DNA of 64,000 bases from a virus (Duplodnaviria > Caudoviricetes). Every line of letters starts with the position of its first letter. The stretch's first letter is position 1. The stretch lies in the IMG/VR virus record IMGVR_UViG_3300033068_001747; one strand, 5' to 3'. A program made the translations under genes and the position numbers. This document shows, piece by piece, positions 1,803-36,131 of the stretch. Below the pieces are notes generated by a model that was not told the origin of the DNA, did no database searches, and saw nothing but the letters and a program-made list of their open reading frames with translations.

Positions 1803-2678
1803 ATGCAAAACACTTTAATGTACAATTCTCTAGTTCAAAAACTAAGAGAATTTTTTTTGGAAAAAAACTTCGTAGAAGTTCCAACACAACCTAGATTATC
1901 AATCTTAGCAGCTTGTGAAAACCCTCACTCTGTTGCTACCTATGAATGGAATGGCTTAGTATGGCCTTTACCACAAACAGGACAAATGCACTTAGAAGTA
2001 GAACTTCTTAAAAATCCACAATGGGACGGTGTATTCTGTATAACAACTTCTTACCGTGCTGAGAAAAATCCAATCCCTGGAAGACACGAAACAATTTTCC
2101 CAATGTTTGAATTTGAATCAAAAGGTGGAATCGAAGAATTGAAAAAACTTGAAGCTGAACTTTTAGTTTACTTAGGATTCGGAGAACCAGTTGAAAGAAA
2201 ATATGACGATTTATGTGAAGAGTACGGTGGTGTACAAATCTTAGAAGACGAACATGAATCAAGAATGTGGAAAGAATTAGGACATTGTGTTTCTTTACAA
2301 CAATTTCCACTAAGAACAAATCCTTTCTGGAATATGCTACCAGTTGGTGACGGTACATTCAACAAAATTGACATTATCTTATTCGGTCAAGAAACAATAG
2401 GATCTGCAGAAAGAAGTTGTGATGTTGCTAGAATGAGAGAACTTTTCCATACAATTGAAAATGGTGCTTATGCTGCTAAATTATTTGAATTATTTGGTCA
2501 AGAAAGAGTAGAGAAGGAATTAGAAGACTTCTTTAGTTTAGATTTCATACCAAGATATGGTGCAGGAATCGGTCTAACAAGATTAGCAAGAGCAATGGAA
2601 CTTCTAATCGAAGATAATCAAAAAGTAGCAGAAGAGTTAAATCTTCTAAATAAAAAAGTTACAGAAGTATATTCATAA
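1803..2678 (+). CDS. Class IIb (Asn/Asp) aminoacyl-tRNA synthetase-like protein, catalytic domain only
   Basis: Motif 1 (FVEVPT), motif 2 (SYRAE...RH...FPMFEFE), ETIGSAER, motif 3 (GAGIGLTRL); no N-terminal OB-fold; likely start ATG 1803. Confidence 0.8.
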   Translation: MQNTLMYNSLVQKLREFFLEKNFVEVPTQPRLSILAACENPHSVATYEWNGLVWPLPQTGQMHLEVELLKNPQWDGVFCITTSYRAEKNPIPGRHETIFPMFEFESKGGIEELKKLEAELLVYLGFGEPVERKYDDLCEEYGGVQILEDEHESRMWKELGHCVSLQQFPLRTNPFWNMLPVGDGTFNKIDIILFGQETIGSAERSCDVARMRELFHTIENGAYAAKLFELFGQERVEKELEDFFSLDFIPRYGAGIGLTRLARAMELLIEDNQKVAEELNLLNKKVTEVYS

Positions 2679-2708
2679 AAAAAAAGAGAGACGAAAGTCT
2701 CTCTTTTT
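2679..2708 (+). terminator. Intrinsic terminator
   Basis: agagagac-gaaa-gtctctct hairpin flanked by A and T tracts. Confidence 0.75.
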
Positions 2709-2753
2709 CATTTTTTAATAATAATATATAAGTTATAAAAAAAAAATGAAAAA

Positions 2754-3239
2754 ATGATTTATTTAAAAACTTTTGAAAAATATTCGGTTACTGAAGCAAA
2801 TTTTAAAGATAAGCTTTACAATGCAAGTACCATTATAACTGGAAAGCCAATGACTTGGGAAATAAACAAAGAAAAAAATGAAAGACTTACTAGAGAAGTT
2901 GCACAAATTCTTATAGATAGAGGATATAATCTAAATGAAGAAGGTGGAACTATGACAGATGGTTCAGAAATTTGGTCACTTCAAGATCAAGGAATGCAAC
3001 CAATTGTCTTTAAAGCCAAACCTGATTACTATGATAAAAGCATATTACAAATTGTAGTTAGTTTTTATTTCCCAAACAGAGAACATAGTGGTGAAAGTGA
3101 AATAATTGATATAGATGAAAATGACTTAGAAAGAACTGCAGATAAAGTATCAGAAGTTCTTGAAAGACTTAGAGCATTAGGTCATAGAGGTAATACATTT
3201 AGTAAACAAGGTAGTATTAAACTTCGACTTGAAGACTAA
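2754..3239 (+). CDS. Hypothetical protein with N-terminal motif MIYLKTFE
   Basis: ORF track; TAATATATA upstream. Confidence 0.7.
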   Translation: MIYLKTFEKYSVTEANFKDKLYNASTIITGKPMTWEINKEKNERLTREVAQILIDRGYNLNEEGGTMTDGSEIWSLQDQGMQPIVFKAKPDYYDKSILQIVVSFYFPNREHSGESEIIDIDENDLERTADKVSEVLERLRALGHRGNTFSKQGSIKLRLED

Positions 3240-3240
3240 T

Positions 3241-3268
3241 AAAAAGAGAGACGAAAGTCTCTTTTTTT
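3241..3268. terminator. Bidirectional terminator between convergent genes
   Basis: gagac-gaaa-gtctc hairpin with A and T tracts. Confidence 0.7.
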
Positions 3269-3689
3269 ATTTTTTATAACTAATCATTAAACCTAATCCC
3301 CATAGACTAGTATTCTCAACATTATCTTTAATAACTTGTTCTAATTTATAAAATTTGAAACCATTATGACTATCATCAGTATTAAAAAAAACTTCACCAA
3401 CTTGACCATTTCCCGAAAAATTATCCAACTCATATCTTCTTTCTAACATCTGTAAAAATGGAATATAATAATTCTTTACATCATTCCAATAAAATAGATC
3501 ATATTCTTCTTGCCTTGGTAAATTAAGATTTATCTTAAAAACTCTGATGTCTTTTCTCCAAGTATCTTCATAAACATCAATCTCATATCCCTCATCCAAA
3601 AGATAAGCTAAAGAGCTATTACAGAAATCTTTTAACTCTTCTACTTCATCAGGTTGTAAATCTTCATTAAATCTTTTTAAAAATCTCAT
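3267..3689 (-). CDS. Hypothetical protein, LAYLLD paralog family, N-terminal motif MRFLKRFNE
   Basis: Shares D[FY]C-x3-LAYLLD and W-x2-[VI]K-x-Y-x-IPF with 7730 and 18065 ORFs. Confidence 0.7.
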   Translation of the reverse strand: MRFLKRFNEDLQPDEVEELKDFCNSSLAYLLDEGYEIDVYEDTWRKDIRVFKINLNLPRQEEYDLFYWNDVKNYYIPFLQMLERRYELDNFSGNGQVGEVFFNTDDSHNGFKFYKLEQVIKDNVENTSLWGLGLMISYKK

Positions 3690-3707
3690 ATACTATATAT
3701 TAAGATT

Positions 3708-3890
3708 TTATTTTAATAACTTATCAATCTTTTGATCCCTAATATAAGCTAAACTATTTCTATAAATTTTTTCAATTGTATTTTGTGGATCATAACCATA
3801 CTTCTGTAAATCCATAATTTGTTCTCTTGTTAAAGGTAAAGTAATACCATTACAAACTACCATATGGTTATCATCAAACTCTATTTTCAC
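3708..3890 (-). CDS. Small hypothetical protein, C-terminal tag IRDQKIDKLL
   Basis: ORF track. Confidence 0.6.
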   Translation of the reverse strand: MKIEFDDNHMVVCNGITLPLTREQIMDLQKYGYDPQNTIEKIYRNSLAYIRDQKIDKLLK

Positions 3891-4690
3891 TATTTCTCTT
3901 TATTTTTATATATGGAATATGGATCCCATTTCTCATCATACCAAAAAGTTCTACCTGTATTATCTTTACAAGATAAACCTTTCTGATAAAAAACCCACTT
4001 CTTAAATTCTTCATAATCAGAATCAAATGGATTAGTCCAATCTGACAACTGACCACCATTTAAGGTATAAGCTTTAATCGGAATATCTCTACAAAAGTCT
4101 AATATATCTGGATTCTCCATAATAATAGTTCTAGCACATTCAAATGGGTTTACATTTATGTAATAAAGAATTGTAGAACGTAAATAATTACCAATTCCAT
4201 TGAAATACTTTTGATCTAAAAGAGCTTCACAAATTGGTTTATCAAATGCTTTTAGTTTTAAGTTTACTAAAACATTTCTTTTAAATTCATCAAATTGTTT
4301 AGTAGGATCTGGTCCACGTTTTACACCAGTAAAAGCACCTAATCGGTATTTTGGTCCCATATATGAACCATAAAGTAATAAAGAATTACCATCATCTGTA
4401 TCTAACCTCATTCTAACAAACTTGGTATCATTCCAATTTTCAGTGGGAACAAATTTCCAATTTCCAGACATACCCATAAATACAGAGAAGTCTAATGTTT
4501 TTGTATCATTTTTAGTTTTTAACTGTAGTTCTTTACCAAAAGAATTGGCGACTACTTCAAAATTTTCAATCAACTCTGAGTCGATTGGGTTATTACCTTT
4601 TTCAACGTGATATAATTTTGTAAACTTTCTTTCTTTTGAATGATGATTTATATAATCACTCATAATTCGTAACTCAGGTCCTTCAGGCAT
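3890..4690 (-). CDS. nei: Fpg/Nei family DNA glycosylase (endonuclease VIII, NEIL1-like)
   Basis: N-terminal PEGPE, GKEL, MGMSG, H2TH LLDQKYFNGIGNYL, zincless finger GRTFW. Confidence 0.9.
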   Translation of the reverse strand: MPEGPELRIMSDYINHHSKERKFTKLYHVEKGNNPIDSELIENFEVVANSFGKELQLKTKNDTKTLDFSVFMGMSGNWKFVPTENWNDTKFVRMRLDTDDGNSLLLYGSYMGPKYRLGAFTGVKRGPDPTKQFDEFKRNVLVNLKLKAFDKPICEALLDQKYFNGIGNYLRSTILYYINVNPFECARTIIMENPDILDFCRDIPIKAYTLNGGQLSDWTNPFDSDYEEFKKWVFYQKGLSCKDNTGRTFWYDEKWDPYSIYKNKEK

Positions 4691-7087: not shown

Positions 7088-7537
7088 ATATATTTTGTAA
7101 TTTTACATAAAGGCTCGTTCGCACCCATGCACATAGGCCACTTAAATATAATTGAAAAAGCTGAAAGAATTTTCGGTAAAGGAAATGTTATAGTTGCAAT
7201 TGGAGTAAATCCCGATAAAAACTATTTAGAAAGACAAGATCCAAAAGAACTTGAAAAGACTATAAATCGTCCTGTTATTACTTATGCTAAGTTTCTACAC
7301 GAACTTGTAGAAGATTATGAGAAAGAAGGTTTAAAAGTAGTTATAATCAGAGGATTAAGAAATGGTACTGATTTAGATTATGAAGTAAATCAATTTAGAT
7401 TTATAAACGACTTTAAGAAAGATATAAACGTAGTTTATATTACTTGTGACCAAGAATTTGAACATATTTCTTCTTCTGCAATTAGAAAGATTGAACAATT
7501 TGGTGGACCAGATATGGTAAAAAAATATCTTTTATAA
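7088..7537 (+). CDS. coaD: Phosphopantetheine adenylyltransferase-like protein (start uncertain)
   Basis: GSFAPMHIGH, IIRGLRNGTDLDYE, HISSSAIR; the GSF motif lies upstream of the first ATG (7127). Confidence 0.7.
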   Translation: MYFVILHKGSFAPMHIGHLNIIEKAERIFGKGNVIVAIGVNPDKNYLERQDPKELEKTINRPVITYAKFLHELVEDYEKEGLKVVIIRGLRNGTDLDYEVNQFRFINDFKKDINVVYITCDQEFEHISSSAIRKIEQFGGPDMVKKYLL

Positions 7538-9303: not shown

Positions 9304-10560
9304 ATGAATGATAATTATAAATACGTAACTGTTATGTTTCCCTACCCTTCTGGTAGTGGATTGCATTGTGGACACTGGTACAATTATGCAATTATAGATA
9401 GTTACTGTAGATACTTGAGATATAAAGGTGAACAAGTTTTTCAACCATTTGGTTATGACTCATTTGGTTTACCTGCAGAAAACTACGCGAAAAAAGTGGG
9501 TAGAGACCCACGAGAAGTTACTTACGAAAATATAGAAAACTTTAGAGGACAGATGAAAAACATGGACACTCAATATGAGGAAATGTTGATTACTTCTGAT
9601 CCTAACTACATTGAATACACACAATGGTTGTTTAAACAATTGTATGATAAAGGATTGGCTTATAAAAAAGATGGTGAAGTTGACTTTTGTAATAGTTGTG
9701 AAACCGTATTGGCTAGAGAACAAGTAAAAGATGGTAAATGTGATAGATGTTCAAATGAAGTTGAAAAGAAAACATTGAACCAATGGTATTTTAAAATCAC
9801 TGATTATAAAGAAAGATTGATTGCAGGTTTGGACCATATAGATTTCCCTGAATCTACCAAGAAAGCTCAAAGAAATTGGTTGGAAAACCAACATGATTGG
9901 TGTGTATCAAGACAAAGAAGTTGGGGTTGTCCAATTCCAATTGAAGGAGAAACTGATACAATGGACACTTTTGTAGATAGTTCTATTTATACTATAATCT
10001 ATTGTATTATGAAAGGTATTAAACCTAAACCAGTTGACTTGTATGTTGGTGGTTCTGAACATGCTTGTATGCACTTGATCTATATTAGATTTATTACTAT
10101 GTTCTTGCATGACATTGGGTTTATTGACTTTGAAGAACCAATTACTAAATTGGTACATCAAGGTATGATTTTGAACCAAGGTGAGAAAATGTCTAAATCT
10201 AAAGATAATGTAGTTAGTTTGGATGGTTATGATTCTGATGAAATTAGATTTTATTTGATGTTTATTGGACATTACTTCGATGGTGGTTCTTGGTCAGATG
10301 AAAATATAATTGGTATTAGAAGATTTATAAATAGAATGAAAACTTGGTTGGATAAAACAGGTGAGGAAACTATTGATATAGAAGCTTTCAAAAAAACTAT
10401 ATTTGATTTTACAGATGCGTTTAAGTTTAACAAAGTAGTGAGTTCATTTATGATTTTGTTGAACCAAAATAAAAATAAAGCATTGACTCCAGAATGTAAA
10501 GAAGAATTGATTAAATTGATTGAGATCTATATGCCTGGTATTAGAGGAAAATTAAACTAA
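9304..10560 (+). CDS. leuS: Miniature leucyl-tRNA synthetase-like protein lacking the CP1 editing domain
   Basis: MFPYPSGSGLHCGH, GYDSFGLPAEN, zinc knuckle, QWYFKIT, DWCVSRQRSWGCPIP, DTMDTFVDSS, KMSKS; 418 aa. Confidence 0.85.
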   Translation: MNDNYKYVTVMFPYPSGSGLHCGHWYNYAIIDSYCRYLRYKGEQVFQPFGYDSFGLPAENYAKKVGRDPREVTYENIENFRGQMKNMDTQYEEMLITSDPNYIEYTQWLFKQLYDKGLAYKKDGEVDFCNSCETVLAREQVKDGKCDRCSNEVEKKTLNQWYFKITDYKERLIAGLDHIDFPESTKKAQRNWLENQHDWCVSRQRSWGCPIPIEGETDTMDTFVDSSIYTIIYCIMKGIKPKPVDLYVGGSEHACMHLIYIRFITMFLHDIGFIDFEEPITKLVHQGMILNQGEKMSKSKDNVVSLDGYDSDEIRFYLMFIGHYFDGGSWSDENIIGIRRFINRMKTWLDKTGEETIDIEAFKKTIFDFTDAFKFNKVVSSFMILLNQNKNKALTPECKEELIKLIEIYMPGIRGKLN

Positions 10561-12205: not shown

Positions 12206-13126
12206 ATGAAAGCAACTTAGATTAACAAAGAAGAATCAAAATTAGTAGTTATCACAAGAAGTGATTTAACTCCTGGCTACCAAGCCCAACAATCTACACA
12301 CTCTGTAGCAGACTTTTCACACGAGTTTCCTCAACAATTTAAAGAATGGAAAACTACATCTAATTCTATCATCTGTTTACAAGTAAACAATGAAAAAGAA
12401 TTAAACGACTTATACATAAAGTTATCCAAACTTACCTCAGTCACAAAATTTTACGAACCAGATTTAAACGATGAACTTACATCTATTTGTTTATATGCAA
12501 ATAAAGATGTCAGAAAGAAAGTTTCATATCTTCCACTTTTAGGTAAAAAACCAAAACTTACTTATCAACAAGTTATCATTGATATGATAGCAACACCACA
12601 AACTGATACACAAAATGTATTAGAACACGGTATATCTGTTGCAAAACACTTTGATAAACTAATTAAAGGAGAAACCGATAACTGGAAATTACCAACTTGG
12701 CTTACAGAAAATAAAGATTTTATCTTTAGTAACCTTCACAAACTAGAAGATATTAAAGAATATCAAGTAATGCACGATTGTGGTAAACCATACTGCATGA
12801 CCATTGATGAACAAGGTAAAAGACACTTTCCAAATCACGCACAAGTTTCATTTGACACATTCTCTAAGATTTCTGACAACAAAGTAGTTGCAGATTTAAT
12901 CTTAAAAGATATGGTATTCCATACAATCAAAGCAAATGAAGTAGAAGATTTTGTTAAAAGTAATTCAATCGAAACCGTTTTAACATTATTAGTAACAGCA
13001 CTTTGCGAATTACACTCTAATACTTCTATGTTTGGTGGTATTGAAAGTACTTCTTTTAAAATCAAATTTAAACAATTAGATAAAAGAGGTAACCAAGTAT
13101 TAAAACTATTAAAAAATAAACAGTAA
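12206..13126 (+). CDS. Peptidyl-tRNA hydrolase 2 (PTH2)-like domain fused to HD domain; in-frame TAG at codon 5
   Basis: ATG AAA GCA ACT TAG, then an open frame LVVITRSDLTPGYQAQQSTHS...FYEPDLNDELTSICL continuous with the 12584 ORF (HDCGKP). Confidence 0.8.
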
Positions 13127-17189: not shown

Positions 17190-18032
17190 ATGGTAACAAG
17201 AGTAGCACCCTCTCCAACTGGTTTTTTCCACTTAGGAACTTTAAGAACTGCACTACTTGCTTGGCTTCAAGCAAGAGCTAATAACGGTACATTCATTTTA
17301 AGAATTGATGATACCGATCAAGAAAGAAATAAACCAGAGTGGATTGATTATATCTACGAGCAAATGTCTGAGTTTGGTTTAGATCACGACATTACTTTCA
17401 GACAATCTGAGAGATTAGACCGTTACAGAGAAGTAGCTGAGAAAATCGGTACTAAAACTGAGAATGGTTACGAGTTAGATATGGGAGAGTACTCAATGGT
17501 TATTCTTAGAAATAACGGGTTCCCTACATATAACTTCTGTTCAATTTTAGATGATTATGACTATGATGTAACTAATATCATTAGAGGTGTTGACCACATT
17601 GCAAATGAGGCAAAACAACGTATTATCTGGGATAAGATTTGTGAAGTAGAAGGAGATAAAACATTTCCAGTAATTACACATGCTGGATTACTTTTCGACG
17701 GTAATGCTAAATTATCTAAGAGAAAAGGTAATGGTACAACAGAAGATTACAAAGATTACAGTAGAGCTGCTATCTTAAACTGGTTGGTTAAATTTGGTTG
17801 GTCACACCCAGATCCATTGTTTGATAAGAAACACCCTACTTTAAGTATAGACGAAATGATTGCTCTTTTCAACGAAGGAAACATTTCAGATAGAAACTGT
17901 AAAATCGATAAAGCTAAATTAGAGTTCCTAAATAAAAAATGGAAAGCAATTGAGAAAAGAGGTGGTGCAGGTTCAACAAAAGAAATCGTAGTTGAGTCAA
18001 AACTTTTAAAGTTTGACGAGTTTCAAAAATAA
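17190..18032 (+). CDS. Glutamyl-tRNA synthetase-like protein, catalytic domain only (GluQ-sized)
   Basis: RVAPSPTGFFHLG, LRIDDTD, QSER, IRGVDH, KLSKR; 280 aa, no anticodon-binding domain. Confidence 0.88.
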   Translation: MVTRVAPSPTGFFHLGTLRTALLAWLQARANNGTFILRIDDTDQERNKPEWIDYIYEQMSEFGLDHDITFRQSERLDRYREVAEKIGTKTENGYELDMGEYSMVILRNNGFPTYNFCSILDDYDYDVTNIIRGVDHIANEAKQRIIWDKICEVEGDKTFPVITHAGLLFDGNAKLSKRKGNGTTEDYKDYSRAAILNWLVKFGWSHPDPLFDKKHPTLSIDEMIALFNEGNISDRNCKIDKAKLEFLNKKWKAIEKRGGAGSTKEIVVESKLLKFDEFQK

Positions 18033-18066: not shown

Positions 18067-18532
18067 ATTTTTTATATCTTTCTAAATCAAATTTTCCATA
18101 AACACGTTTTTCATCTAAATAAATCTTTATATCATAAATTAGTATTTTATTCATACTATATTCATATGGAAGATTTCTACCCAACCAGTCTTTAAACTTG
18201 TCATCATTCATATCATAATACTTAGATTCAACGTCACCATCATTATCAAGTGATCTTAAATCCAATAAACTATTCTTTAAATAATATGTCTGTTCTAAAT
18301 AATGATAGAAAGGAATAATATAATCTTTTATATTATTCCAATGTAATGGTTTTTTAAATGAGACTTTAACGTAAGTACCATAAACATGACTATTGTTGGT
18401 ACAAACTAATGAAACATTATCATCATCAAGTAAATAAGCTAAATGTTGTTCACAAAAATCTTGAAACTCTTCCTTAAATTGTTGTTTCATTTCTTGTTGA
18501 CTCTTAGCTTCAAACAATTTAATATACTTCAT
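18065..18532 (-). CDS. Hypothetical protein, LAYLLD family, N-terminal motif MKYIKLFE
   Basis: Paralog motifs; TAATATATA upstream. Confidence 0.7.
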   Translation of the reverse strand: MKYIKLFEAKSQQEMKQQFKEEFQDFCEQHLAYLLDDDNVSLVCTNNSHVYGTYVKVSFKKPLHWNNIKDYIIPFYHYLEQTYYLKNSLLDLRSLDNDGDVESKYYDMNDDKFKDWLGRNLPYEYSMNKILIYDIKIYLDEKRVYGKFDLERYKK

Positions 18533-18580
18533 AGTGTATATATTATTTATTTTATATATATTTGTAAAAATTTAGAAATC

Positions 18581-19225
18581 ATGAGTAAGTATAACAGAAC
18601 ATATCATTTACCTTGGTCACCTGGAACTACCAGTGATGATAGAATATCTAATAGTGTCGAATCACTATTGGGTACAGAGATTGTTATTACTGAAAAGTTG
18701 GATGGTGAAAATTGCGGAATGACAGATGAAGGAGTTTATGCCAGAAGTCATGCTACCTTTACAACGTCTCCTTGGTCAAGAGAAGTAAGACAACTTCATA
18801 AAGTTAAAGTAGAGAATATGTTAGGAGAAGGAGTTCTCTTATTTGGAGAAAATATGGAAGGTATTCACTCAATTGAATATAGTAATCTTGAGTCATACTT
18901 TTATATTTTCGGTGTTAGAGATAATGAAATTTGGATCCCGTGGGAACAAGTTGAAGAGTATTCTTACTTATTAGATATACCTACTGTACCAGTTTTATTT
19001 AAAGGTGTTGTAAACACAGTTAAAGAATTACAAGAAATTGTCGAAGATTTAGTAAGTAAACCTTCTGAATTAGGTGGACAAAGAGAAGGTATCGTAGTAA
19101 GAAATGCAGGAATGTTTCACAATGACGACTTTGCAGATAACGTAATGAAATGGGTAAGAAAGGGACACGTTCAAACAGATGAACATTGGACTAGAAATTG
19201 GAAGAAAGCCGAAATAAAAAGATAA
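18581..19225 (+). CDS. ATP-dependent RNA ligase family protein
   Basis: TEKLDGEN (motif I), FGEN, EGIVVR, KWVR; start MSKY at 18581. Confidence 0.85.
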   Translation: MSKYNRTYHLPWSPGTTSDDRISNSVESLLGTEIVITEKLDGENCGMTDEGVYARSHATFTTSPWSREVRQLHKVKVENMLGEGVLLFGENMEGIHSIEYSNLESYFYIFGVRDNEIWIPWEQVEEYSYLLDIPTVPVLFKGVVNTVKELQEIVEDLVSKPSELGGQREGIVVRNAGMFHNDDFADNVMKWVRKGHVQTDEHWTRNWKKAEIKR

Positions 19226-20275: not shown

Positions 20276-21181
20276 ATGAAGACAAATCTAAAAATTAAAA
20301 TACTTATCGGAGTACCTGCTTCCGGCAAATCTACGTGGGCCAAAGATTTTGTAAAAGCAAATGATAATTGGACCAGAGTTAGTAGAGACGACTTTAGAGA
20401 AATGTTAAAAAACTCTGGAGTTGTGGAAAATAAAGTTGAAAATATAATCAATGAATTGGTTGATGCAACAATAGAACAATCATTACTTAAAAAAATGAAT
20501 GTTATTGTCGATAACACAAATTTAAAAGATAAATATATTCAAAACATTATTGAGAAGTTTAAGTATAGTGCCGATATAGACTATCAAGTCTTTGATATAT
20601 CAAAGGACAAAGCGATAGAAAGAGACAGACAAAGAGATAAGTCTGTAGGTCCAGTTGTTATCAATAAAATGTATAAAGAATATAAAATTCTTATGGATTC
20701 ATTTGACTTTCAACCTGTCAAAAAAATGACAAGACCTCACTTGACCCCAAATTTCAACTCACCTAAACAAGGTGCTGTTATATTTGACATCGATGGTACA
20801 CTTGCACTTATGGGTCGTAGAGGTCCATTTGATTGGATGCAAGTTTATAAAGACGATTTGAACGAAATTGTATCGGAACAGTTACAATTTCATAAAGATA
20901 AAGGTAGAAAAGTAATTATTGTAACTGGTCGTGACGAAGTTTGTCGAGAAGTTACCGAAGAATGGTTAGACTTTCACGGTATTCAGTTTGACGAAATGTA
21001 TATGAGACCAAAAGATGATTATAGAAAAGATACCTTAATTAAAAAAGAAATATACGAAAATCATATTAAGCCAAATTATAACTTACTTTGTGTTTATGAT
21101 GATAGATTAAGTGTAGTTAGAACTTGGAATGAATTAGGAGTATTTGTATTTAATGTAAATCAAGGAACACATCAATTTTAA
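20276..21181 (+). CDS. pseT: Polynucleotide 5'-kinase/3'-phosphatase (T4 PseT-like)
   Basis: GVPASGKST P-loop, RDDFR, HAD motif DIDGTL, VTGR, DDR. Confidence 0.92.
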   Translation: MKTNLKIKILIGVPASGKSTWAKDFVKANDNWTRVSRDDFREMLKNSGVVENKVENIINELVDATIEQSLLKKMNVIVDNTNLKDKYIQNIIEKFKYSADIDYQVFDISKDKAIERDRQRDKSVGPVVINKMYKEYKILMDSFDFQPVKKMTRPHLTPNFNSPKQGAVIFDIDGTLALMGRRGPFDWMQVYKDDLNEIVSEQLQFHKDKGRKVIIVTGRDEVCREVTEEWLDFHGIQFDEMYMRPKDDYRKDTLIKKEIYENHIKPNYNLLCVYDDRLSVVRTWNELGVFVFNVNQGTHQF

Positions 21182-25231: not shown

Positions 25232-26296
25232 ATGTTAACAACTTTGCTAATTTTAGCTTTACTTGCAGTTTGTATCTTTGAATTTGTAAATGGATTTCAC
25301 GATACTGCTAATGCCGTTGCGACGGTAATTTACACAAAATCTTTAAAACCTAAACAAGCAGTTGTTTGGTCAGGAATTATGAACTTTCTTGGACTTATGA
25401 CTGGTGGTGTAGGTGTCGCACTTAGTATTGTAACACTAATACCCAAAGAACTAATCACTGATACTAACATATACCACTCTATGGGAATGGTTATGTCAAT
25501 TCTTATTACTGCAATTTTTTGGAATTTAGCAACTTGGTACAAAGGAATTCCTGCTTCTTCTTCACATACTTTAATCGGCTCAATAATTGGAGTTTCTGTA
25601 GGTTACTCTATTTTAACTGGTGTAGATTACACTAATTGGGGTAAAATTATTGATATAGGAAAAGCGTTAGCTTTCTCACCTTTATTAGGTTTCACTATGG
25701 TTATACTTTTAATGTGGTTTCTAAACAAAGTTATCAAAAGAAAAGATGTATTTGAAGAGCCAAATGGTGATACTCCACCACCAACTTGGATTAGAGCGAC
25801 TTTAATTTCAACTTGTACATTAGTTTCATTTTTTCACGGAAGAAATGACGGTCAAAAAGGAATTGGTTTAGCAATGATTATACTTATGGCTTTCTTACCT
25901 ACTTACTTTACATTAGAAACTGTTGAAAATCCACCAATGTGGGTTATGTGGATGATTGCTACGTCATTAGGATTAGGAACAATGATTGGTTGGAAAAGAA
26001 TTGTAGTTACAATTGGAGAGAAAATTGGTAAACAACACTTAACTTATGCACAAGGTGCTTCTTCTGAATTAGTTGCTGCAATCACAATTGGATTATCAAC
26101 TGCATTTAAACTACCAGTATCAACAACACACATTCTAAGTTCTGGTATTGCAGGGTCAATGGTGGCATCAAAAGGAATAAATAATTTAAAAACTAAAACA
26201 ATTAAAACAATATTATCCGCTTGGATTCTTACGTTACCAGTAACAATTGTGGTATCATGTGGATTATTTCTATTATTTAGATATATTTCAGGATAA
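25232..26296 (+). CDS. pit: Inorganic phosphate transporter (PiT family)
   Basis: NGFHDTANAVAT, GIPASSSHTLIG, HGRNDGQK, PVSTTH. Confidence 0.93.
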   Translation: MLTTLLILALLAVCIFEFVNGFHDTANAVATVIYTKSLKPKQAVVWSGIMNFLGLMTGGVGVALSIVTLIPKELITDTNIYHSMGMVMSILITAIFWNLATWYKGIPASSSHTLIGSIIGVSVGYSILTGVDYTNWGKIIDIGKALAFSPLLGFTMVILLMWFLNKVIKRKDVFEEPNGDTPPPTWIRATLISTCTLVSFFHGRNDGQKGIGLAMIILMAFLPTYFTLETVENPPMWVMWMIATSLGLGTMIGWKRIVVTIGEKIGKQHLTYAQGASSELVAAITIGLSTAFKLPVSTTHILSSGIAGSMVASKGINNLKTKTIKTILSAWILTLPVTIVVSCGLFLLFRYISG

Positions 26297-27627: not shown

Positions 27628-27738
27628 GGTCTGTTCGTCTAGCGGATGTCACTTCGGTGATAGGACGACACTTCTACGCTTAAATGTGCCCTGGTATATG
27701 GAGAGGTGTAAACAAAGGTTCGAATCCTTTACAGACTA
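27628..27738 (+). tRNA. tRNA-Glu-like RNA copy 1 (D-loop hairpin, 26-nt anticodon-loop expansion)
   Basis: GGTCTGT/ACAGACT acceptor; TCAC-TTCG-GTGA in D-loop; ACACTTCT/AGAGGTGT stem. Confidence 0.75.
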
Positions 27739-27858
27739 CAAAAAAAAATGAAAAAAGATTTGGTAGATTAAAAAAGTCTTCGTATCTTTGTCAAACAAAA
27801 TAAGAGTAGGTGTCTTGTGAAATTCTTGACTTCTTGGTGTACGATAGCACAACTCTTC

Positions 27859-27945
27859 GGTCTGTTCGTCTAGCGGTGTCACTTCGGTGACTAGGACAAC
27901 TTCCCTTTCAGGAAGGAAACGCGGGTTCGAATCCCGTACAGACTA
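27859..27945 (+). tRNA. tRNA-Glu-like RNA copy 2 (UUC in a 6-nt loop)
   Basis: Same body; CTTCC-CTTTCA-GGAAG anticodon arm. Confidence 0.8.
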
Positions 27946-28007
27946 CTGCTTTAATGGAATTTTAAGCTTGAGTTTTGTGATGGAACTCTTTAAAGAACTA
28001 TCACATC

Positions 28008-28096
28008 GGTCTGTTCGTCTAGCGGTTCACTTCGGTGATAGGACAACTTTTCAGTGAGTGATGAAGTAAACGCGGGTTCGAATCCCGTACAGACTA
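28008..28096 (+). tRNA. tRNA-Glu-like RNA copy 3 (extended anticodon arm, loop GTGAG)
   Basis: Same body; ACTTTTCA-GTGAG-TGATGAAGT arm. Confidence 0.75.
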
Positions 28097-28161
28097 CAAA
28101 TAAAATATAGGTGGTTACACGCCAGTAATGGTGTGTGTATCAAAGAGGTAAGCCACTTATC

Positions 28162-28249
28162 GGTCTGTTCGTCTAGCGGATGTCACTTCGGTGACTAGGA
28201 CATCTTCTCTTCGGAGTTGGGAACGCAGGTTCGAATCCTGTACAGACTA
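28162..28249 (+). tRNA. tRNA-Glu-like RNA copy 4 (anticodon loop replaced by a cUUCGg tetraloop)
   Basis: Same body; CTC-TTCG-GAG. Confidence 0.75.
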
Positions 28250-28266
28250 CAACAAATAAAACATAT

Positions 28267-28339
28267 CGCGGGATAGAGCAGTAGGCAGCTCGCAAGGCTC
28301 ATAACCTTGAGGTCACAGGTTCGAGTCCTGTTCCCGCTA
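28267..28339 (+). tRNA. tRNA-fMet (CAU)
   Basis: C1:U72 mismatch, CAAGG-CTCATAA-CCTTG, canonical D and T arms. Confidence 0.9.
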
Positions 28340-28421
28340 CTAAGTGTAAATGTCATTCTGTAATGTTGACAAGTTGGTACTTTTAGTATCCATCTTTAGT
28401 GTAATTAAAACACGACACTTC

Positions 28422-28534
28422 GGTCTGTTCGTCTAGTGGACGTTTACTGAACACAAAGCTTCGGCATTAAAGTAAAGTAAACAGGACTTCTCCCTTAGAA
28501 GGAGACAACGCGGGTTCGAATCCCGTACAGACTA
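28422..28534 (+). tRNA. tRNA-Glu-like RNA copy 5 with UAG (Leu) anticodon and ~40-nt D-loop insertion
   Basis: Same acceptor and T arm; TCTCC-CTTAGAA-GGAGA; GTTTACT...AGTAAAC inserted helix. Confidence 0.75.
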
Positions 28535-28554
28535 CAATGCTTGGTCGCCAGGTA

Positions 28555-28720: not shown

Positions 28721-29560
28721 ATTGTATTATCCAACTAGTCACTTCGGTGGTTAGTAAAATGATAATCGGCGGTGTATCGTCGTTAAATAAACTACGAAAG
28801 TAGGATAAAGTGGAATCAACGTTAAATGGTTCTGCGGCTCGTAAGAGCTCGAGTACACAAGTGGGATATCCAACGTCCTGATTAACCGAGGGCTTACGCT
28901 GTAGGTGAAATGGAATTTGGACTTGGCAATGTGGATTGTCGAGTTGATGTGGGAACACCAATAAGAATAACCCATAGGAACTCTGTAAGAAAGGTAGCTC
29001 CAACTATCTGATTGCGGGTTCCAATATAAAAGGCAACTTAAAACCGAAAGGTAAGGTAGAGAACAGGTGGTGCTGCTACTATCCCTACTAAATGTCTACC
29101 AAGACGTTAGTTTGAAGTTTTCTTGAAGTATGGAGGCTGGGAGGCTTCACGAAGGAGTTTAGTATTTCGTTGTTCAAAAGATAACGAAGCTTACGACAGA
29201 CCACTTCTTCGACACATCCACGAACACAAAAGCAATTTACATTTGAAGTAAAATTTAAACATAAAAAGCGAAAGTGTCTGTCAGGTTTCAACGAAAGTTG
29301 ACTACATACTTAGGAGCTGTTCCTAGGACGTCAAGACCGCAAGTTAAGACGTATTCTTGCCAAAAACCTCTAAGGGGTCGAACCCTTAATCAGACCGCAA
29401 GTTTGAAGAGAGTTGAGTAATAAGAGAGTAGTTGAAACCTCAAGAAGTGATTAGTCTAACTAATCGTCAATGAGAATTACAATCCAAAAGATTGTGGATA
29501 CGAAGAGAAACAATAATTCTTCAAAAGATTCTTACAAGATGGCATAATCTCAGCCTATTA
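28720..29560 (+). ncRNA. Large (~850 nt) structured ncRNA, GOLLD-like candidate
   Basis: Raised GC; no credible ORF; many GNRA/UUCG-capped hairpins; follows a tRNA cluster and boxA; terminator after. Confidence 0.65.
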
Positions 29561-30582: not shown

Positions 30583-33105
30583 ATGAGGAAATTATTATTA
30601 ATTCTAATCGGACTTTTTAGTATGACGGTATCAGCTCAAACTAAAGAGAAAGTAGAGGACCAAACTACTAAAAAAGACTCGGTCGAAAATGTTAAAGAAC
30701 TACAAGAAGTTGTAGTTGTAGGTAGAGGAGTTATTGACCTAGCAAAAGAAAGAAAAACTCCTATTGCGGTTTCAACAGTAAAAGCGGTTGAAATACAAGC
30801 AAAAGTTGGTACAGCAGACGTTACACAAGCTTTGGTAAACACACCATCTGTTTATGTTGCAGGACAAGCTGGAGGTTTTGGTGACTCAAGAATCTCAGTT
30901 CGTGGGTTCCAACAAGACAATACTGCTTTCCTATTAAATGGTCAACCAATCAATGGTATGGAAGATGGTAAGATGTACTGGTCTAACTGGTCGGGTATGT
31001 CAGATATTGCAAATGCAATACAAATTCAAAGAGGTTTAGGTTCTTCTAAACTAGCAATCTCATCAGTCGGTGGTACAGTAAACTTTATTACAAGAGCAAC
31101 TGATATGAGACAAGGTGGATTTTCATCAGCAGGTGTTGCTAATGATGATTATTTAAAAACAACAGTTGGATATAATACAGGTATTATGGAAAACGGTTTC
31201 GGTGCAAGTGTTATGTTATCACATTGGCAAGGTGATGGTTATTTTGATGGAACAAAAGGTCAAGGTCAAAACTACTTTATCTCATTCGGTTATAAACCAA
31301 ATGCAAAACATAACTTTAACTTCTTAATTACTGGTGCACCACAGCAACACGATCAAAACTTCACAAAAAAGATTTCTGATTACTTAGGTTTCGGCAGAAG
31401 ATATAATAACAATTACGGTTATTTGAATGGTCAATATATATCAGAAAGAGTGAATTTTTATCATAAACCAGTTGCAAACTTTAACTGGGATTATAAAATA
31501 AACGATAAGCTAGACTTATCAACAGTTCTTTATGCATCTTGGGGTAGAGGTGGAGGAACTGGTAACTACGGTAGTGGGAAGAAAAGTGTTTCTCAATTAA
31601 ATCCTTATACAGGTCAAATGCAAAACACTTATATTGATTTTAATCAGATTTATGCTAATAACTCAGCAGATGCTGATGGTATTGGATCTAGTTCAAATTA
31701 TGCAATTAGATCATCTATGAATAATCATGAGTGGTATGGTATTGTGTCAAACTTAAAAAATAAGTTGAATGATAATTTAACATTAAACTTAGGAGTTGAT
31801 TTAAGAACATATAATGGTGATCACTATAGACAAATTACTAATTTTATGGGGTTAAATGGATGGACTGAAAGTAGATTTTTAAGAGATAATAATCATGTTA
31901 TTCCTAACCCAAATACATTACCAAGTGCAACCATTACAGTTAATCAATCATTTAGTACTAACCCGTGGTCTGCATTCTTTAATAAAGCAGATGATAGTCA
32001 AAAAATTGACTATGACTACAGTGAAACAATTTCTTACGGTGGAGTCTTTGGACAATTAGAGTATTCTAAAGATAACTTCTCAACTTTCTTTCAAGGAGCA
32101 GTTTCTAATCAAACACACCAAAGATTTGACTACTATGACTATCAAAAAGAATTTCAAAATTCTGAAAAAGTTTCTAATGTAGGATATAATGTAAAAGGTG
32201 GTGCCGCATATAACTTCAATGAAAAACACGTTGTTTATGGAAATGCTGGATATTACTCAAGACAACCATATCATGATAACATTTACTTAAACTTTACTAA
32301 CCAAGTAAACCCATTAACACAAAACGAGAAAGTTTTAGGACTAGAAGCTGGTTATACATTCAAATCAAAAGTTTTTACTACTAGCATAAACGCTTATAGA
32401 ACAACTTGGGAAGATAGAGTCGTAACTACATCAAATGTTCAATCTACAAATGGAGTTATTGGAACTACACCAGTTTCTGTAGGTGATGTCATCTTCACAT
32501 CCAATCAAGGTGTTAGACAAATTCATTCTGGTGTTGAGTTAGACTTTATATTAAAACCTGTTGCTAAATTAGATATTAAAGGATTTGCATCAGTTGGAAA
32601 CTGGGAATATAGTGGAAGTGCTACTAGTAGAAAATTTGATGAAAACTTAAATTTACTAACTGAAGCTGAAACAAATTTAGATGGTGGAAAAGTAGGTGAT
32701 GCTGCTCAAACAACTTGGGGATTAGGTGCTAAATATGAATTGTTAACAAGATTCTCTATTGATGCTGATTGGAGAAACTATGATAATTTATATGCAAATG
32801 TAGTTGCTAAAGATAACTTACAGTTACCTTCTTATGACTTAGTAGATATGGGTATATCATATAAAATGTTAGTAGGTAAAGACAAACAAAATTCTGTAAA
32901 CTTTAGATTAAATGTAAATAACTTATTTGATGAAGTTTATTTATCTGAGTTAACTTCTAATATTAAAACTGATGCATTTATCAGTGGAAACTCAGGACCT
33001 ACATATCAATCTGCAGGTAGAGTTTACAAAGGAATCGCTGATGGAAACCAAGGTTTCTTTGGATTTGGAAGAACTTGGAACTTAACATTAAGATATAATT
33101 TCTAA
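30583..33105 (+). CDS. TonB-dependent receptor
   Basis: Signal peptide, plug (TPSVY, VRGFQQ, QRGLGSS...GGTVN), C-terminal YNF. Confidence 0.93.
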   Translation: MRKLLLILIGLFSMTVSAQTKEKVEDQTTKKDSVENVKELQEVVVVGRGVIDLAKERKTPIAVSTVKAVEIQAKVGTADVTQALVNTPSVYVAGQAGGFGDSRISVRGFQQDNTAFLLNGQPINGMEDGKMYWSNWSGMSDIANAIQIQRGLGSSKLAISSVGGTVNFITRATDMRQGGFSSAGVANDDYLKTTVGYNTGIMENGFGASVMLSHWQGDGYFDGTKGQGQNYFISFGYKPNAKHNFNFLITGAPQQHDQNFTKKISDYLGFGRRYNNNYGYLNGQYISERVNFYHKPVANFNWDYKINDKLDLSTVLYASWGRGGGTGNYGSGKKSVSQLNPYTGQMQNTYIDFNQIYANNSADADGIGSSSNYAIRSSMNNHEWYGIVSNLKNKLNDNLTLNLGVDLRTYNGDHYRQITNFMGLNGWTESRFLRDNNHVIPNPNTLPSATITVNQSFSTNPWSAFFNKADDSQKIDYDYSETISYGGVFGQLEYSKDNFSTFFQGAVSNQTHQRFDYYDYQKEFQNSEKVSNVGYNVKGGAAYNFNEKHVVYGNAGYYSRQPYHDNIYLNFTNQVNPLTQNEKVLGLEAGYTFKSKVFTTSINAYRTTWEDRVVTTSNVQSTNGVIGTTPVSVGDVIFTSNQGVRQIHSGVELDFILKPVAKLDIKGFASVGNWEYSGSATSRKFDENLNLLTEAETNLDGGKVGDAAQTTWGLGAKYELLTRFSIDADWRNYDNLYANVVAKDNLQLPSYDLVDMGISYKMLVGKDKQNSVNFRLNVNNLFDEVYLSELTSNIKTDAFISGNSGPTYQSAGRVYKGIADGNQGFFGFGRTWNLTLRYNF

Positions 33106-33124: not shown

Positions 33125-33155
33125 AAAAAAGTCGAAACTTAGTTTCGACTTTTTT
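33125..33155 (+). terminator. Intrinsic terminator
   Basis: agtcgaaact-t-agtttcgact hairpin plus T tract. Confidence 0.7.
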
Positions 33156-33166
33156 ATATTATACAT

Positions 33167-33412
33167 ATGAGAGAAGAACTTTTACTACAATACGTAAATG
33201 AAATTAAGGAAATTTACGATGATAGATTAGTTTACATAGACTTTTATACAGAAATCGGACCTATCTTAAACATAAAATTTATTAGTTGTGATTATGAACT
33301 AGAATTAAATAGTTTACACTATACAGATTGTGATGGTGATCCTATAATAGAAAAATGTAAACAAATATTTATCAAATATAAAAGACATGAAACCTTAAAA
33401 AAATTACTTTAA
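33167..33412 (+). CDS. Hypothetical protein, C-terminal tag KRHETLKKLL
   Basis: ORF track. Confidence 0.6.
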   Translation: MREELLLQYVNEIKEIYDDRLVYIDFYTEIGPILNIKFISCDYELELNSLHYTDCDGDPIIEKCKQIFIKYKRHETLKKLL

Positions 33413-33430
33413 AAATTAAAAAAACTTATT

Positions 33431-33814
33431 ATGAAAAAACTTTTATTTACATTACTATTATTATTCTCATTTGCATTAGTATCAGCACAAACTGAGTTTA
33501 CCAGAATCTATACAAAGATCTGTACAATTGAAAAAGGTAAGGAACCAAAATGGAATGACGCAGAAAACAAATTTATCTTTAATTATCAAAATGATGCAAC
33601 TATCAAAATGATATTAAATAACGGCACTGTCAAATTCTTTGATCAAGTTACTGATTTAGTTGAAAATAAAACTGAAGGTGGTATTTCTTATCAAGGTGCA
33701 GAATTTAAAGAACAAGGAACCTCTTTTAAGGTCTACCTACAAATATTTGATGACGCAGACTATGGTACAAGAATCATTTTCACTAACGGTACAATGGTTC
33801 AATTTACAAACTAA
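33431..33814 (+). CDS. Secreted hypothetical protein
   Basis: Signal peptide. Confidence 0.65.
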   Translation: MKKLLFTLLLLFSFALVSAQTEFTRIYTKICTIEKGKEPKWNDAENKFIFNYQNDATIKMILNNGTVKFFDQVTDLVENKTEGGISYQGAEFKEQGTSFKVYLQIFDDADYGTRIIFTNGTMVQFTN

Positions 33815-33854
33815 TCTACAAAAATCTTGAATATATTAAAAATAAAGTACAAAA

Positions 33855-34100
33855 ATGGAACAAAAAGAACTTAACTACGGAATTATGCCAGGAGAAACTT
33901 GGCGACACTACAAAGGTGGTAACTACAAAATTATCACTCTAGCAAATCATACTGAAACTAAAGAACCTTTAGTTATTTATCAATCTATATCATTTGGATC
34001 AATCTATGCAAGACCTTTATCAATCTGGTGTGATACCGTTGAAAATAGAAGAGGTGGTTTGGAACCAAGATTTGTAAAAGTTGAAAGTGAAAATGAGTAA
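33855..34100 (+). CDS. DUF1653 family protein
   Basis: WRHYKGGNY...A.HTET.E.LVIY...YARPL. Confidence 0.85.
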   Translation: MEQKELNYGIMPGETWRHYKGGNYKIITLANHTETKEPLVIYQSISFGSIYARPLSIWCDTVENRRGGLEPRFVKVESENE

Positions 34101-35373
34101 GATAGATTTATTACTAGGTCTTCAATGGGGAGACGAAGGAAAAGGAAAAATTGTAGATGTTATTACATCAAAATATGACATAGTTGCAAGATTTCAAGGT
34201 GGTCCAAATGCTGGACATACAATCTACTTTGATGGTAGAAAACATGTTTTAAGAACTATACCATCAGGTGTATTCAATAAAAATACAATAAATATAATTG
34301 GTAATGGTGTTGTACTTGATCCAGTTGTATTTAAACAAGAAGTTGAAGAACTACTTAAATTTGATAAAACTATTAAAGATAGATTACTTATCTCAAGAAA
34401 AGCTCATCTTATTTTTCCAACACACAAACTTTTAGATGCTACATCAGAAGCAGCCAAAGGTAAAGATAAAATTGGCTCTACTCTTAAAGGTATTGGACCT
34501 ACTTATATGGACAAAACTGGTAGAAATGGTATCAGAGTTGGCGATTTAGAATTACCAGACTTCCATAAAAGATTTGCTAAGTTAGAAAAGAAACATGATG
34601 AACTAATTGATTGGGGTGTTATTGAACAATTTAACACTAACTATGATGATATGCAAGATGAATTTTTAGATGCAATTACTTATCTAAAACAATTTACATT
34701 TATCGATAGTGAAGAATATCTATTTCAAGCTCAACAACAAGGAAAATCAATTCTTTGTGAAGGAGCTCAAGGTTCTTTATTAGATGTTGACTTTGGTACT
34801 TATCCATTTGTTACTTCTTCTAATACAACTGCCGCAGGAGCTTGTACTGGTTTAGGAATTGCCCCTAATAAAATACAAGATGTGTTTGGTATATTTAAAG
34901 CATACACAACAAGAGTTGGTAGTGGTCCATTTCCAACTGAATTGTTTGATGAAACAGGTGAGAAAATGGCTAAAATTGGTAATGAATTTGGATCTGTTAC
35001 TGGTAGAGCAAGAAGATGTGGTTGGTTAGATTTAGTTGCGTTAAAATACACTTGTCAAATTAATGGTGTAACTGAACTAATGATGATGAAAGCAGACGTA
35101 CTATCAGGATTTGACAATATAAAGGTTTGTATAGGTTATAAATATAAAGGTGAAGTAATTACTCACTTTCCTTATAACATTGAACCAGAGAACTTAGAAC
35201 CTATCTATTTAGGGTTTAGTGGTTGGTCAGAAGACTTAACTGGAATTACAGATTATAAGGATTTACCAGATGAACTAAAAGAATATATAGAGTTTATTGA
35301 AAAAGAAACAGGAATAAATATAACACTTGTTTCTGTGGGTCCAGATAGAAAACAAACAATAAGAAAAAATTAG
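34093..35373 (+). CDS. purA: Adenylosuccinate synthetase
   Basis: GLQWGDEGKGK, GGPNAGHT, EGAQG, TRVGSGPFPTE, RRCGWLD. Confidence 0.97.
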   Translation: MSKIDLLLGLQWGDEGKGKIVDVITSKYDIVARFQGGPNAGHTIYFDGRKHVLRTIPSGVFNKNTINIIGNGVVLDPVVFKQEVEELLKFDKTIKDRLLISRKAHLIFPTHKLLDATSEAAKGKDKIGSTLKGIGPTYMDKTGRNGIRVGDLELPDFHKRFAKLEKKHDELIDWGVIEQFNTNYDDMQDEFLDAITYLKQFTFIDSEEYLFQAQQQGKSILCEGAQGSLLDVDFGTYPFVTSSNTTAAGACTGLGIAPNKIQDVFGIFKAYTTRVGSGPFPTELFDETGEKMAKIGNEFGSVTGRARRCGWLDLVALKYTCQINGVTELMMMKADVLSGFDNIKVCIGYKYKGEVITHFPYNIEPENLEPIYLGFSGWSEDLTGITDYKDLPDELKEYIEFIEKETGINITLVSVGPDRKQTIRKN

Positions 35374-35405
35374 GAATATAAAAAAATAAGTTATACATTT
35401 GCATT

Positions 35406-35450
35406 ATGAAAAATAGATTTAATTTTAATGTCCATTGTAGCCATAGATAA
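35406..35450 (+). promoter_or_regulatory. Putative His-containing leader peptide upstream of the hisS-like gene
   Basis: MKNRFNFNVHCSHR*, stop overlapped by a TAGCC...GGCTA hairpin; TACATTTG promoter element. Confidence 0.4.
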
Positions 35451-35495
35451 TATCTGGGCTATAAAACTATGTACAAAAAATTAAAACTAAAAACA

Positions 35496-36131
35496 ATGGA
35501 AATTAAATTAAAAAATACCTATAAAGGAACAAGAATAATATTTGCTGAAACTGCAAAAAGAAAAAGAACTATTTTGAACCAAATGATTGAAATACTTGAA
35601 TCATATGGTTACCAAGAAATGATGATTCCTGTCATTCAATTATCTGATACATTTGCTAAAAAAGTTGGTGAAGAAAACAATAACATGATGTACACTTTTA
35701 CTGATAGAGGTAATAGAGACATCTGTTTAGCACCAGAATATACTGCTGTTGTGCAACAACTTGCAAATGAAACATTCAAAATGACTAAAGATGTAAAACT
35801 CTTTTACATTGGAGAATGTTTTAGAGGCGAAAGACCTCAGGCATCAAGATGGAGACAATTTACACAATTTGGTGTTGAAGTAATCAATCCAAGAAAAGAT
35901 TACACAGATGAATTGTTAGAAATAGCAAAGAAACTTATTGAAATAGTCACAGATAACTATGAAGTTAATTTAGATGCAACTAGAGGACTTGACTACTATA
36001 CTGGTGGTAAAGGATTTGAGATTTCTTGTCCACAATTAGGTGCAGCCAAACAAATTTGCGGAGGTGGCTCTTATCAAGGAGGAGTGGGACTGGCTATAGG
36101 TGTGGATAGATTACTGAATTGTAACCAATAA
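35496..36131 (+). CDS. Histidyl-tRNA synthetase-like protein, catalytic core only
   Basis: LAPEYTA, FRGERPQ..RWRQFTQFGVE, RGLDYYTG, GGGSY, G.AIGVDRL; ends right after motif 3. Confidence 0.85.
   Translation: MEIKLKNTYKGTRIIFAETAKRKRTILNQMIEILESYGYQEMMIPVIQLSDTFAKKVGEENNNMMYTFTDRGNRDICLAPEYTAVVQQLANETFKMTKDVKLFYIGECFRGERPQASRWRQFTQFGVEVINPRKDYTDELLEIAKKLIEIVTDNYEVNLDATRGLDYYTGGKGFEISCPQLGAAKQICGGGSYQGGVGLAIGVDRLLNCNQ

Follow-up and report, generated by a model that had tools for sequence, protein, structure and literature searches.

Four shortened aminoacyl-tRNA synthetase genes in a huge-phage genome as candidate members of phage-specific minimal synthetase families

Can aminoacyl-tRNA synthetases that have been reduced almost to their catalytic cores still be working enzymes of a virus? 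This question is raised by a stretch of 64,000 nucleotides of viral DNA (Duplodnaviria, Caudoviricetes; IMG/VR record IMGVR_UViG_3300033068_001747), which was analysed at its full length and is called the window here. A first-pass annotation made from the letters of the window had described four stripped synthetases that keep their catalytic motifs. Intact open reading frames (ORFs), matches to hidden Markov models (HMMs), folds and motif alignments all agree with this description, and the four genes are located as follows:

1803 to 2678, plus strand: minimal class IIb synthetase core of the asparagine/aspartate type (Asx-type), 291 amino acids (aa); ORF open from a GTG at 1725
9304 to 10560, plus strand: leucyl-tRNA synthetase type (mini-LeuRS), 418 aa; Rossmann core and ZN1 module
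17190 to 18032, plus strand: glutamyl-tRNA synthetase type (mini-GluRS), 280 aa; Rossmann core and stem-contact fold with a disordered, variable tail
35496 to 36131, plus strand: histidyl-tRNA synthetase type (mini-HisRS), 211 aa from the ATG at 35496; ORF open from 35469

Their sizes place the proteins among the smallest natural forms observed for such enzymes. Judged by sequence comparison, there is an even chance that the genes encode functional enzymes and represent four families of minimal aminoacyl-tRNA synthetases that are specific to phages.

The window is part of a huge-phage genome related to LR745206.1, a sequence of 634,780 bp deposited as 'uncultured phage' (Al-Shayeb et al. 2020). 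This complete genome, taken in full, was the reference for all genome-wide checks and stands in for the window's own genome. It contains orthologues of mini-LeuRS, mini-GluRS and mini-HisRS which are 69-85% identical to the window proteins, while homologues of no more than 31 of 100 window ORFs occur there and the gene order differs; the shortened synthetases are therefore among the most conserved of the shared genes. An orthologue of mini-HisRS was also found in LR756502.1, and orthologues of the Asx-type gene in LR756501.1 and LR756508.1.

All four ORFs are open under translation table 11 and remain unchanged under table 4 (TGA read as tryptophan), hence their short length is not due to an alternative genetic code. 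The E-values of the four synthetase assignments, between 1e-10 and 1e-110, exclude chance, and the four families keep fixed lengths over hundreds of phage contigs, some of them 600-656 kb long. Ratios of nonsynonymous to synonymous substitution rates (dN/dS) of 0.09-0.23 were obtained for the Leu, Glu and His genes in comparison with LR745206.1, synonymous sites being saturated. As every catalytic motif is kept, all four proteins are likely to form aminoacyl-adenylates.

Judged from sequence features, mini-HisRS offers the best case for tRNA charging among the four. It retains motifs 1 and 2, the HisA (RGLDYY) and HisB (GGGSY) motifs and motif 3 (GLAIGVDRL), and it stops ten residues after motif 3, where the first-pass annotation had placed its end. 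Alignments to the HisRS of E. coli and S. aureus revealed that, besides the whole anticodon domain, the insertion domain (E. coli residues ~145-241) is missing. The protein scored 156.7 bits with TIGR00442 (hisS, cut-off 286.75) and 103.1 bits with TIGR00443 (HisZ, cut-off 271.65), that is, below the cut-off in both cases and lower with HisZ than with hisS. HisZ and engineered catalytic-domain or urzyme constructs of HisRS resemble mini-HisRS in having a HisRS-type core devoid of an anticodon domain. Unlike HisZ, however, mini-HisRS retains the arginines of motifs 2 and 3 as well as HisA and HisB, and unlike the engineered constructs it is natural, widespread and under selection, and has lost the insertion domain too.

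All motif-2 positions matching E. coli R113, E115, R116, Q118, R121, R123 and Q127 are kept in mini-HisRS; according to published mutagenesis of the E. coli enzyme, R116, Q118 and R123 read G-1:C73 of tRNA-His. Acceptor minihelices are known substrates of HisRS. Two tRNA-His genes, both encoding G-1, lie 2.7 kb upstream of mini-HisRS in LR745206.1. The family is large: a search at E<=1e-5 gave 1882 homologues, and those listed, 120 in number, were 208-236 aa long and came from contigs of up to 656 kb. For mini-HisRS, dN/dS amounted to 0.09-0.12. Some homologues (metagenomic sequences P0391-P0394) reach 564-583 aa owing to an intein with a LAGLIDADG endonuclease in the active-site loop, LAPEY/T; as a rule, inteins insert at places on which the function of a protein depends. 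No close full-length HisRS relative of mini-HisRS was found, the top full-length matches being 36-46% identical over part of the query.

Structure prediction suggested that mini-HisRS dimerises: the homodimer scored 0.87 (best control 0.00), with contacts agreeing by at least 98% and a predicted local distance difference test score (pLDDT) of at least 85. Among proteins of solved structure, 20 of 30 one-chain pairs and one of 23 single chains attained this mark, and the pass may mirror the likeness of mini-HisRS to HisRS dimers that have already been solved.

The 3' end of mini-HisRS is overlapped by a further gene:

36074 to 36955, minus strand: GIY-YIG/NUMOD homing endonuclease gene, converging on mini-HisRS and overlapping its last 58 bases

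A HisRS gene split by this endonuclease was ruled out, because every member of the family terminates at the same position, whether or not the endonuclease gene is present. Mini-HisRS contains no histidine, and the same holds for 118 of the 120 closely related sequences listed. A general avoidance by the enzymes of their own amino acid was considered and rejected, since only mini-HisRS fits and no such avoidance was seen for Leu, Glu, Asn or Asp; full-length HisRS relatives are also nearly free of histidine in the part homologous to mini-HisRS.

Mini-LeuRS matched TIGR00396 with 369 bits in three stretches (cut-off 548, thus below). The HIGH motif is present as HCGH, KMSKS is conserved and the four-cysteine ZN1 module is retained. 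The top solved match was the LeuRS of Mycoplasma mobile (3ziu, 265 bits), and the alignment with LeuRS structures reached E=7e-78. Residues 7-226 and 242-351 of mini-LeuRS align with residues 39-275 and 356-470 of the 637-aa 3ziu, from which it follows that the phage protein has neither CP1 nor a leucine-specific domain, keeps little of the helical domain and is devoid of the C-terminal one. The alignment jumps CP1 and stops at residue 470, in agreement with the first-pass description of a LeuRS of 418 aa with a short C-terminus and no CP1. The M. mobile enzyme naturally has no CP1 editing domain (PMC3643597). Mini-LeuRS resembles it in that CP1 is missing at the same point and a short linker replaces the leucine-specific domain; unlike 3ziu, the phage protein is also devoid of most of the helical anticodon-binding domain and of the whole C-terminal tRNA-binding domain. 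The 120 homologues listed were 382-450 aa long, mostly 417-419 aa, shared 75-97% identity and were found on contigs of up to 648 kb; dN/dS against LR745206.1 was 0.23. Bacterial LeuRS does not read the anticodon of tRNA-Leu.

One neighbour of mini-LeuRS belongs to the HIGH superfamily:

7127 to 7537, plus strand: cytidylyltransferase-like (HIGH-superfamily) protein, 136 aa

It lies ~1.7 kb upstream of mini-LeuRS in both the window and LR745206.1, the two copies being 64% identical. A GDSL lipase near mini-LeuRS was found to be dissimilar to the lipase that adjoins the Asx-type homologue of cyanophage P-SSM2, and a link through lipases was therefore dropped.

The start of the Asx-type protein was put at the ATG at 1803, where its homologues begin. 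The protein matched Pfam tRNA-synt_2 (PF00152) with 38.8 bits over profile positions 18-291 of 308; it begins at the catalytic domain and has no N-terminal OB-fold anticodon-binding domain, as the first-pass annotation had stated. It belongs to PHROG 29758 (322 bits), which carries no functional annotation, and its family comprises 635 representative clusters of mostly 270-300 aa. The AlphaFold2 model (pLDDT 96.6) shows the class IIb catalytic fold with motifs 2 and 3, and a Foldseek search gave catalytic domains of aspartyl- and asparaginyl-tRNA synthetases (AspRS, AsnRS) as top matches with template modelling (TM) scores of ~0.7 and E ~1e-17, followed by archaeal asparagine synthetase A (3reu, 3rl6) with TM 0.67. 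With NCBIfam models the single protein scored 18-21 bits for AsnRS/AspRS (cut-offs 342-414) and 18.1 bits for archaeal AsnA (NF005055, cut-off 389), all below the cut-offs. The family profile ranked AsnRS (61 bits) and archaeal AspRS (57) before archaeal AsnA (3p8t, 34) and EpmA-type proteins (27). Archaeal asparagine synthetase A (3reu/3p8t) and EpmA/GenX are likewise stand-alone class IIb cores of ~290-325 aa without an OB fold; they differ from the Asx-type family in that its profile scores highest with AsnRS and its gene is joined to a tRNA(GUU) in cyanophages.

An AsnRS-like motif, Q..Q..LE, is found in the Asx-type family where AspRS reads Q..Q..KQ, the lysine of which is known to bind the aspartate side chain. 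Because this lysine is replaced, the sequence suggests an asparagine-like pocket. The Prochlorococcus cyanophages P-SSM7 and P-SSM2 encode a homologue 55% identical to the Asx-type protein and annotated 'tRNA ligase'. Within ~10 nt after this gene both phages carry a tRNA of 85-88 nt with a GUU anticodon and a long variable arm, which is the sole tRNA of P-SSM2. This linkage argues for a tRNA-related role of the putative enzyme.

In mini-GluRS, residues 3-89 and 102-252 align with residues 13-100 and 177-319 of GluRS. As the alignment skips GluRS residues 100-177 and ends at about 320, not only the anticodon domain is missing, as the first-pass annotation had it, but also the acceptor-binding insertion of ~75 residues, on which that annotation had not remarked. 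The motifs RxAPSPTG, HLGT (HIGH-type) and KLSKR are present, and the active-site motifs are invariant or nearly so in 15 aligned orthologues. The protein scored 213.9 bits with TIGR00464 (gltX, cut-off 289.95) and 122.3 bits with the GluQRS model TIGR03838 (cut-off 276.7), below the cut-off in both cases. An AlphaFold2 model (pLDDT 86.8, last 22 residues disordered) superposed on bacterial GluRS with TM 0.75-0.80 (E=7.5e-22 at TM 0.77) and more poorly on GluQRS (1nzj, 4a91; TM 0.57-0.63). GluQRS (YadB) is a truncated GluRS paralogue that glutamylates queuosine in tRNA-Asp. It is similar to mini-GluRS in length (~280-300 aa), in the absence of an anticodon-binding domain and in its HIGH-type and KLSK motifs; unlike GluQRS, mini-GluRS has no zinc-bearing insertion domain, favours the gltX model (214 versus 122 bits) and superposes better on GluRS.

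Orthologues of mini-GluRS were found at 25 IMG/VR loci, and the 24 not cut by a contig end encode proteins of 256-282 aa with 58-94% identity; dN/dS against LR745206.1 was 0.115. The nearest cellular GluRS genes, among sequences chosen by motif and hence forming a biased sample, shared no more than 35% identity in whole-length matches, and each of them was full length unless cut by a locus end. A set of unusual repeats lies 10 kb from mini-GluRS:

27628 to 28536, plus strand: five tRNA-Glu-like repeats with a common acceptor stem GGUCUGU/ACAGACU and a normal T arm

Each repeat has a UUCG hairpin in its D-loop, and the anticodon arm differs from repeat to repeat; ARAGORN called none of them, and one received a weak Rfam tRNA match. 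It is conceivable that these repeats are substrates of mini-GluRS, their proximity being the sole link.

By HMM scores and folds, on which the placement rests, the four proteins are nearer to the canonical enzymes than to GluQRS, HisZ, AsnA or EpmA, known non-charging paralogues from which they can thus be told apart. Neither did we find the missing domains elsewhere, which would have spoken against the first-pass view of four stripped enzymes. In the neighbouring window ORFs tested with Pfam and PHROGs, no synthetase or tRNA-binding domain was detected, and split genes were ruled out on this ground. In the complete LR745206.1, HGTP_anticodon had no match at all, Anticodon_1 was confined to isoleucyl-tRNA synthetase (IleRS) and, weakly, the shortened valyl-tRNA synthetase (mini-ValRS), Anticodon_2 to the full-length GluRS, and the OB fold to AspRS and AsnRS; orphan anticodon or OB-fold domains are absent from this genome.

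The 59 tRNAs encoded by LR745206.1 serve all 20 amino acids, and of its 11 synthetase-like genes six are shortened:

Full length or nearly so: IleRS, 735 aa; non-discriminating AspRS, 433 aa; AsnRS, 392 aa; GlnRS, 532 aa; GluRS, 492 aa
Shortened: ValRS, 443 aa (no CP1); MetRS-like, 457 aa; GlyRS-like, 246 aa; GluRS, ~285 aa; HisRS, 211 aa; LeuRS, 422 aa

Four shortened synthetases within 35 kb had been called unusual in the first-pass annotation; this is true for cells and does not apply to the phage clade, given the six in LR745206.1. For His, Leu, Val and Gly the shortened form is the only copy of this phage, whereas mini-GluRS is an additional one. Many of the synthetase genes are located inside or beside tRNA arrays; GlnRS, for example, comes directly after three tRNA-Gln genes, and the GlyRS-like core lies amid tRNA-Gly genes. 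Some of the tRNA genes are themselves unusual:

LR745206.1, 388229 to 390005: short-arm tRNA-Leu genes
LR745206.1, 388398 to 388484: long-arm tRNA-Asn(GUU) gene

Of the five tRNA-Leu genes, three have A73, a length of 74-76 nt and no long variable arm; these would be compatible with a LeuRS devoid of its C-terminal domain. One of the three tRNA-Asn(GUU) genes, 87 nt long, shares the long variable arm with the tRNA located after the Asx-type gene in cyanophages.

According to the reading proposed here, the four families would be part of the equipment for translation in a clade of huge phages, which has about 60 tRNA genes as well. Each enzyme would keep the aminoacyl-adenylate chemistry and would have lost modules that either proofread (CP1) or hold the anticodon, the elbow or the acceptor helix of the tRNA. 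The His, Leu and Asn-type enzymes would load tRNAs by recognising the acceptor end and the discriminator base alone and without editing, the phage's own tRNAs being the likeliest substrates, and charged tRNAs may in this way remain available for phage translation when the host's synthetases or tRNAs become scarce or are attacked. Such anticodon-independent, proofreading-free charging would be the most likely role for these three; for mini-GluRS it is doubtful. Mini-GluRS probably hands activated glutamate to another acceptor or to a special RNA, and it is the least likely of the four to be an ordinary synthetase. Only tentatively can one go further and regard these proteins as the smallest natural synthetases that charge tRNA (HisRS with 211 aa, LeuRS with 418 aa and the AsnRS type with ~290 aa), acting on a private pool of phage tRNAs, which would include tRNA-Leu without a long arm and the long-arm tRNA(GUU).

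Several observations weigh against working synthetases of this kind. All four proteins score below the NCBIfam cut-offs of their families. According to published work on the enzymes studied, the C-terminal domain of LeuRS and the insertion and anticodon domains of HisRS contribute strongly to tRNA binding. No tRNA adjoins the Asx-type gene in the window or in two other huge phages. Most of the objections concern mini-GluRS: it has no acceptor-binding insertion, it coexists with a full-length GluRS and a GlnRS in LR745206.1, and in two of its orthologues the histidine of the HIGH motif is replaced by glutamine. Bacterial GluRS requires tRNA even for the activation of glutamate. The loss of the insertion and the coexisting full-length GluRS argue against simple charging of an acceptor stem by mini-GluRS. 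The neighbours of mini-GluRS vary as well, an RNA ligase and a polynucleotide kinase-phosphatase being adjacent only in close relatives, and the tie to odd tRNAs and tRNA repair that the first-pass annotation had drawn is correspondingly weak. The C-terminal domain has proved important in the LeuRS enzymes studied (PMC3561953).

Among the alternatives, it is possible, if rather unlikely, that the four proteins are amino-acid-activating paralogues which serve an acceptor other than the 3' end of tRNA, such as a modified tRNA base (as GluQRS does), a protein (EpmA), ammonia (AsnA), a small molecule or ATP, the latter yielding dinucleoside polyphosphates. To our knowledge, all characterised truncated synthetase paralogues act in this way, and the architectures of the four phage proteins resemble theirs. 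The resemblance of the Asx-type core to archaeal asparagine synthetase A (TM 0.67) fits this explanation, as does mini-GluRS with its lost acceptor-binding insertion beside a full-length GluRS in the related phage. On the other hand, the HMM scores prefer the canonical families throughout (gltX 214 versus GluQRS 122 bits, hisS 157 versus hisZ 103 bits; for the Asx-type profile AsnRS 61 versus AsnA 34 and EpmA-type 27 bits), and Foldseek placed the fold of mini-GluRS closer to GluRS than to GluQRS. Furthermore, the HisRS residues that read the tRNA acceptor are kept, LR745206.1 possesses tRNAs for His, Leu, Val and Gly but only shortened enzymes for them, and the Asx-type gene is joined to a tRNA in cyanophages.

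Much less probable is a function as regulators or decoys, which would poison class II dimers of the host, soak up toxins aimed at synthetases or tRNAs, or sense amino acids like HisZ. Decoys are common in phages, and mini-HisRS, predicted to retain the class II dimer interface, might pair with a host subunit. However, the families keep invariant catalytic residues for which a protein that only binds would have no use, and dimer poisoning does not apply to mini-LeuRS and mini-GluRS, because class I enzymes are monomers. The annotated genes of the window also offer no histidine-biosynthesis context of the HisZ type, although hisG was not searched for directly. Decaying remnants of host genes, or artefacts of a wrong genetic code or of split genes, could account for the short lengths and the family scores below threshold, yet this explanation is barely tenable. 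The ORFs are the same under table 4, lengths are fixed over many divergent phages, and the missing domains are absent from the neighbouring ORFs tested and from LR745206.1; the dN/dS values of 0.09-0.23 and the conservation refute decay, and the nearest cellular GluRS genes are distant (at most 35% identical) and, where uncut, full length.

The remainder of the window, with a guanine plus cytosine content of 28% and densely packed small ORFs, carries a cargo typical of large phages that comprises an anaerobic ribonucleotide reductase, a ClpB-like ATPase and the following features:

18443 to 19225, plus strand, and 20276 to 21181, plus strand: two RNA ligase genes, forming an RNA-repair set with the next gene
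43801 to 44439, minus strand: polynucleotide kinase-phosphatase
25232 to 26296: PHO4 phosphate transporter
29150 to 29556, plus strand: full-length GOLLD RNA (Rfam RF02032, 324 bits against a gathering score of 150)
30583 to 33105 and 51359 to 53416, plus strand: two TonB-dependent receptor-like genes (Plug and beta-barrel)
34081 to 35373: adenylosuccinate synthetase
46977 to 48434: malate:quinone oxidoreductase

In LR745206.1 the second RNA ligase sits 1.2 kb from mini-HisRS. The GOLLD RNA is located just downstream of a tRNA-Met and the tRNA-like repeats. An ORF of 180 aa at 12584 to 13126 (plus strand) has a homologue of 294 aa in a related phage (locus L046, 140-1024), which suggests that the window gene may extend further in the N-terminal direction. 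Sequencing runs containing the window sequence came from wastewater, freshwater and groundwater metagenomes and from one metatranscriptome, the latter with a small share.

Genes of this kind have been deposited and counted as synthetases before, and what appears to be new is their minimal architecture. Huge-phage genomes carry up to 15 synthetases each, and Bacteroidetes are given as hosts of the phages concerned here (Al-Shayeb et al. 2020, PMC7162821). In the supplementary GenBank file of that study the mini-GluRS orthologue of LR745206.1 is labelled gltX, and another of its genomes lists a 211-aa 'Histidyl-tRNA synthetase-related protein'; those parts of its text and supplements that we consulted treat the genes as synthetases and do not describe the stripped-down form (PMC7162821). 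Descriptions of these shortened forms were also not found in the literature searched, in which natural urzyme-like GlyRS proteins recently drew attention (PMC11602164).

If the proteins do charge tRNAs, evolution, and not only engineering, would have trimmed synthetases of both classes, I and II, to not much beyond the catalytic core. The phage enzymes would then be natural counterparts of engineered urzymes and bear directly on the debate over ancestral ones. A large virus could run its translation with relaxed fidelity and anticodon-independent recognition, and genetic-code engineering would gain very compact parts together with ready-made orthogonal pairs of enzyme and tRNA. Should the acceptors be different ones, the genes would instead represent several new and very abundant phage families of amino-acid ligases. 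In either case, the numbers of 'synthetases' counted in the genomes of huge phages overstate how many full-length conventional enzymes these phages encode.

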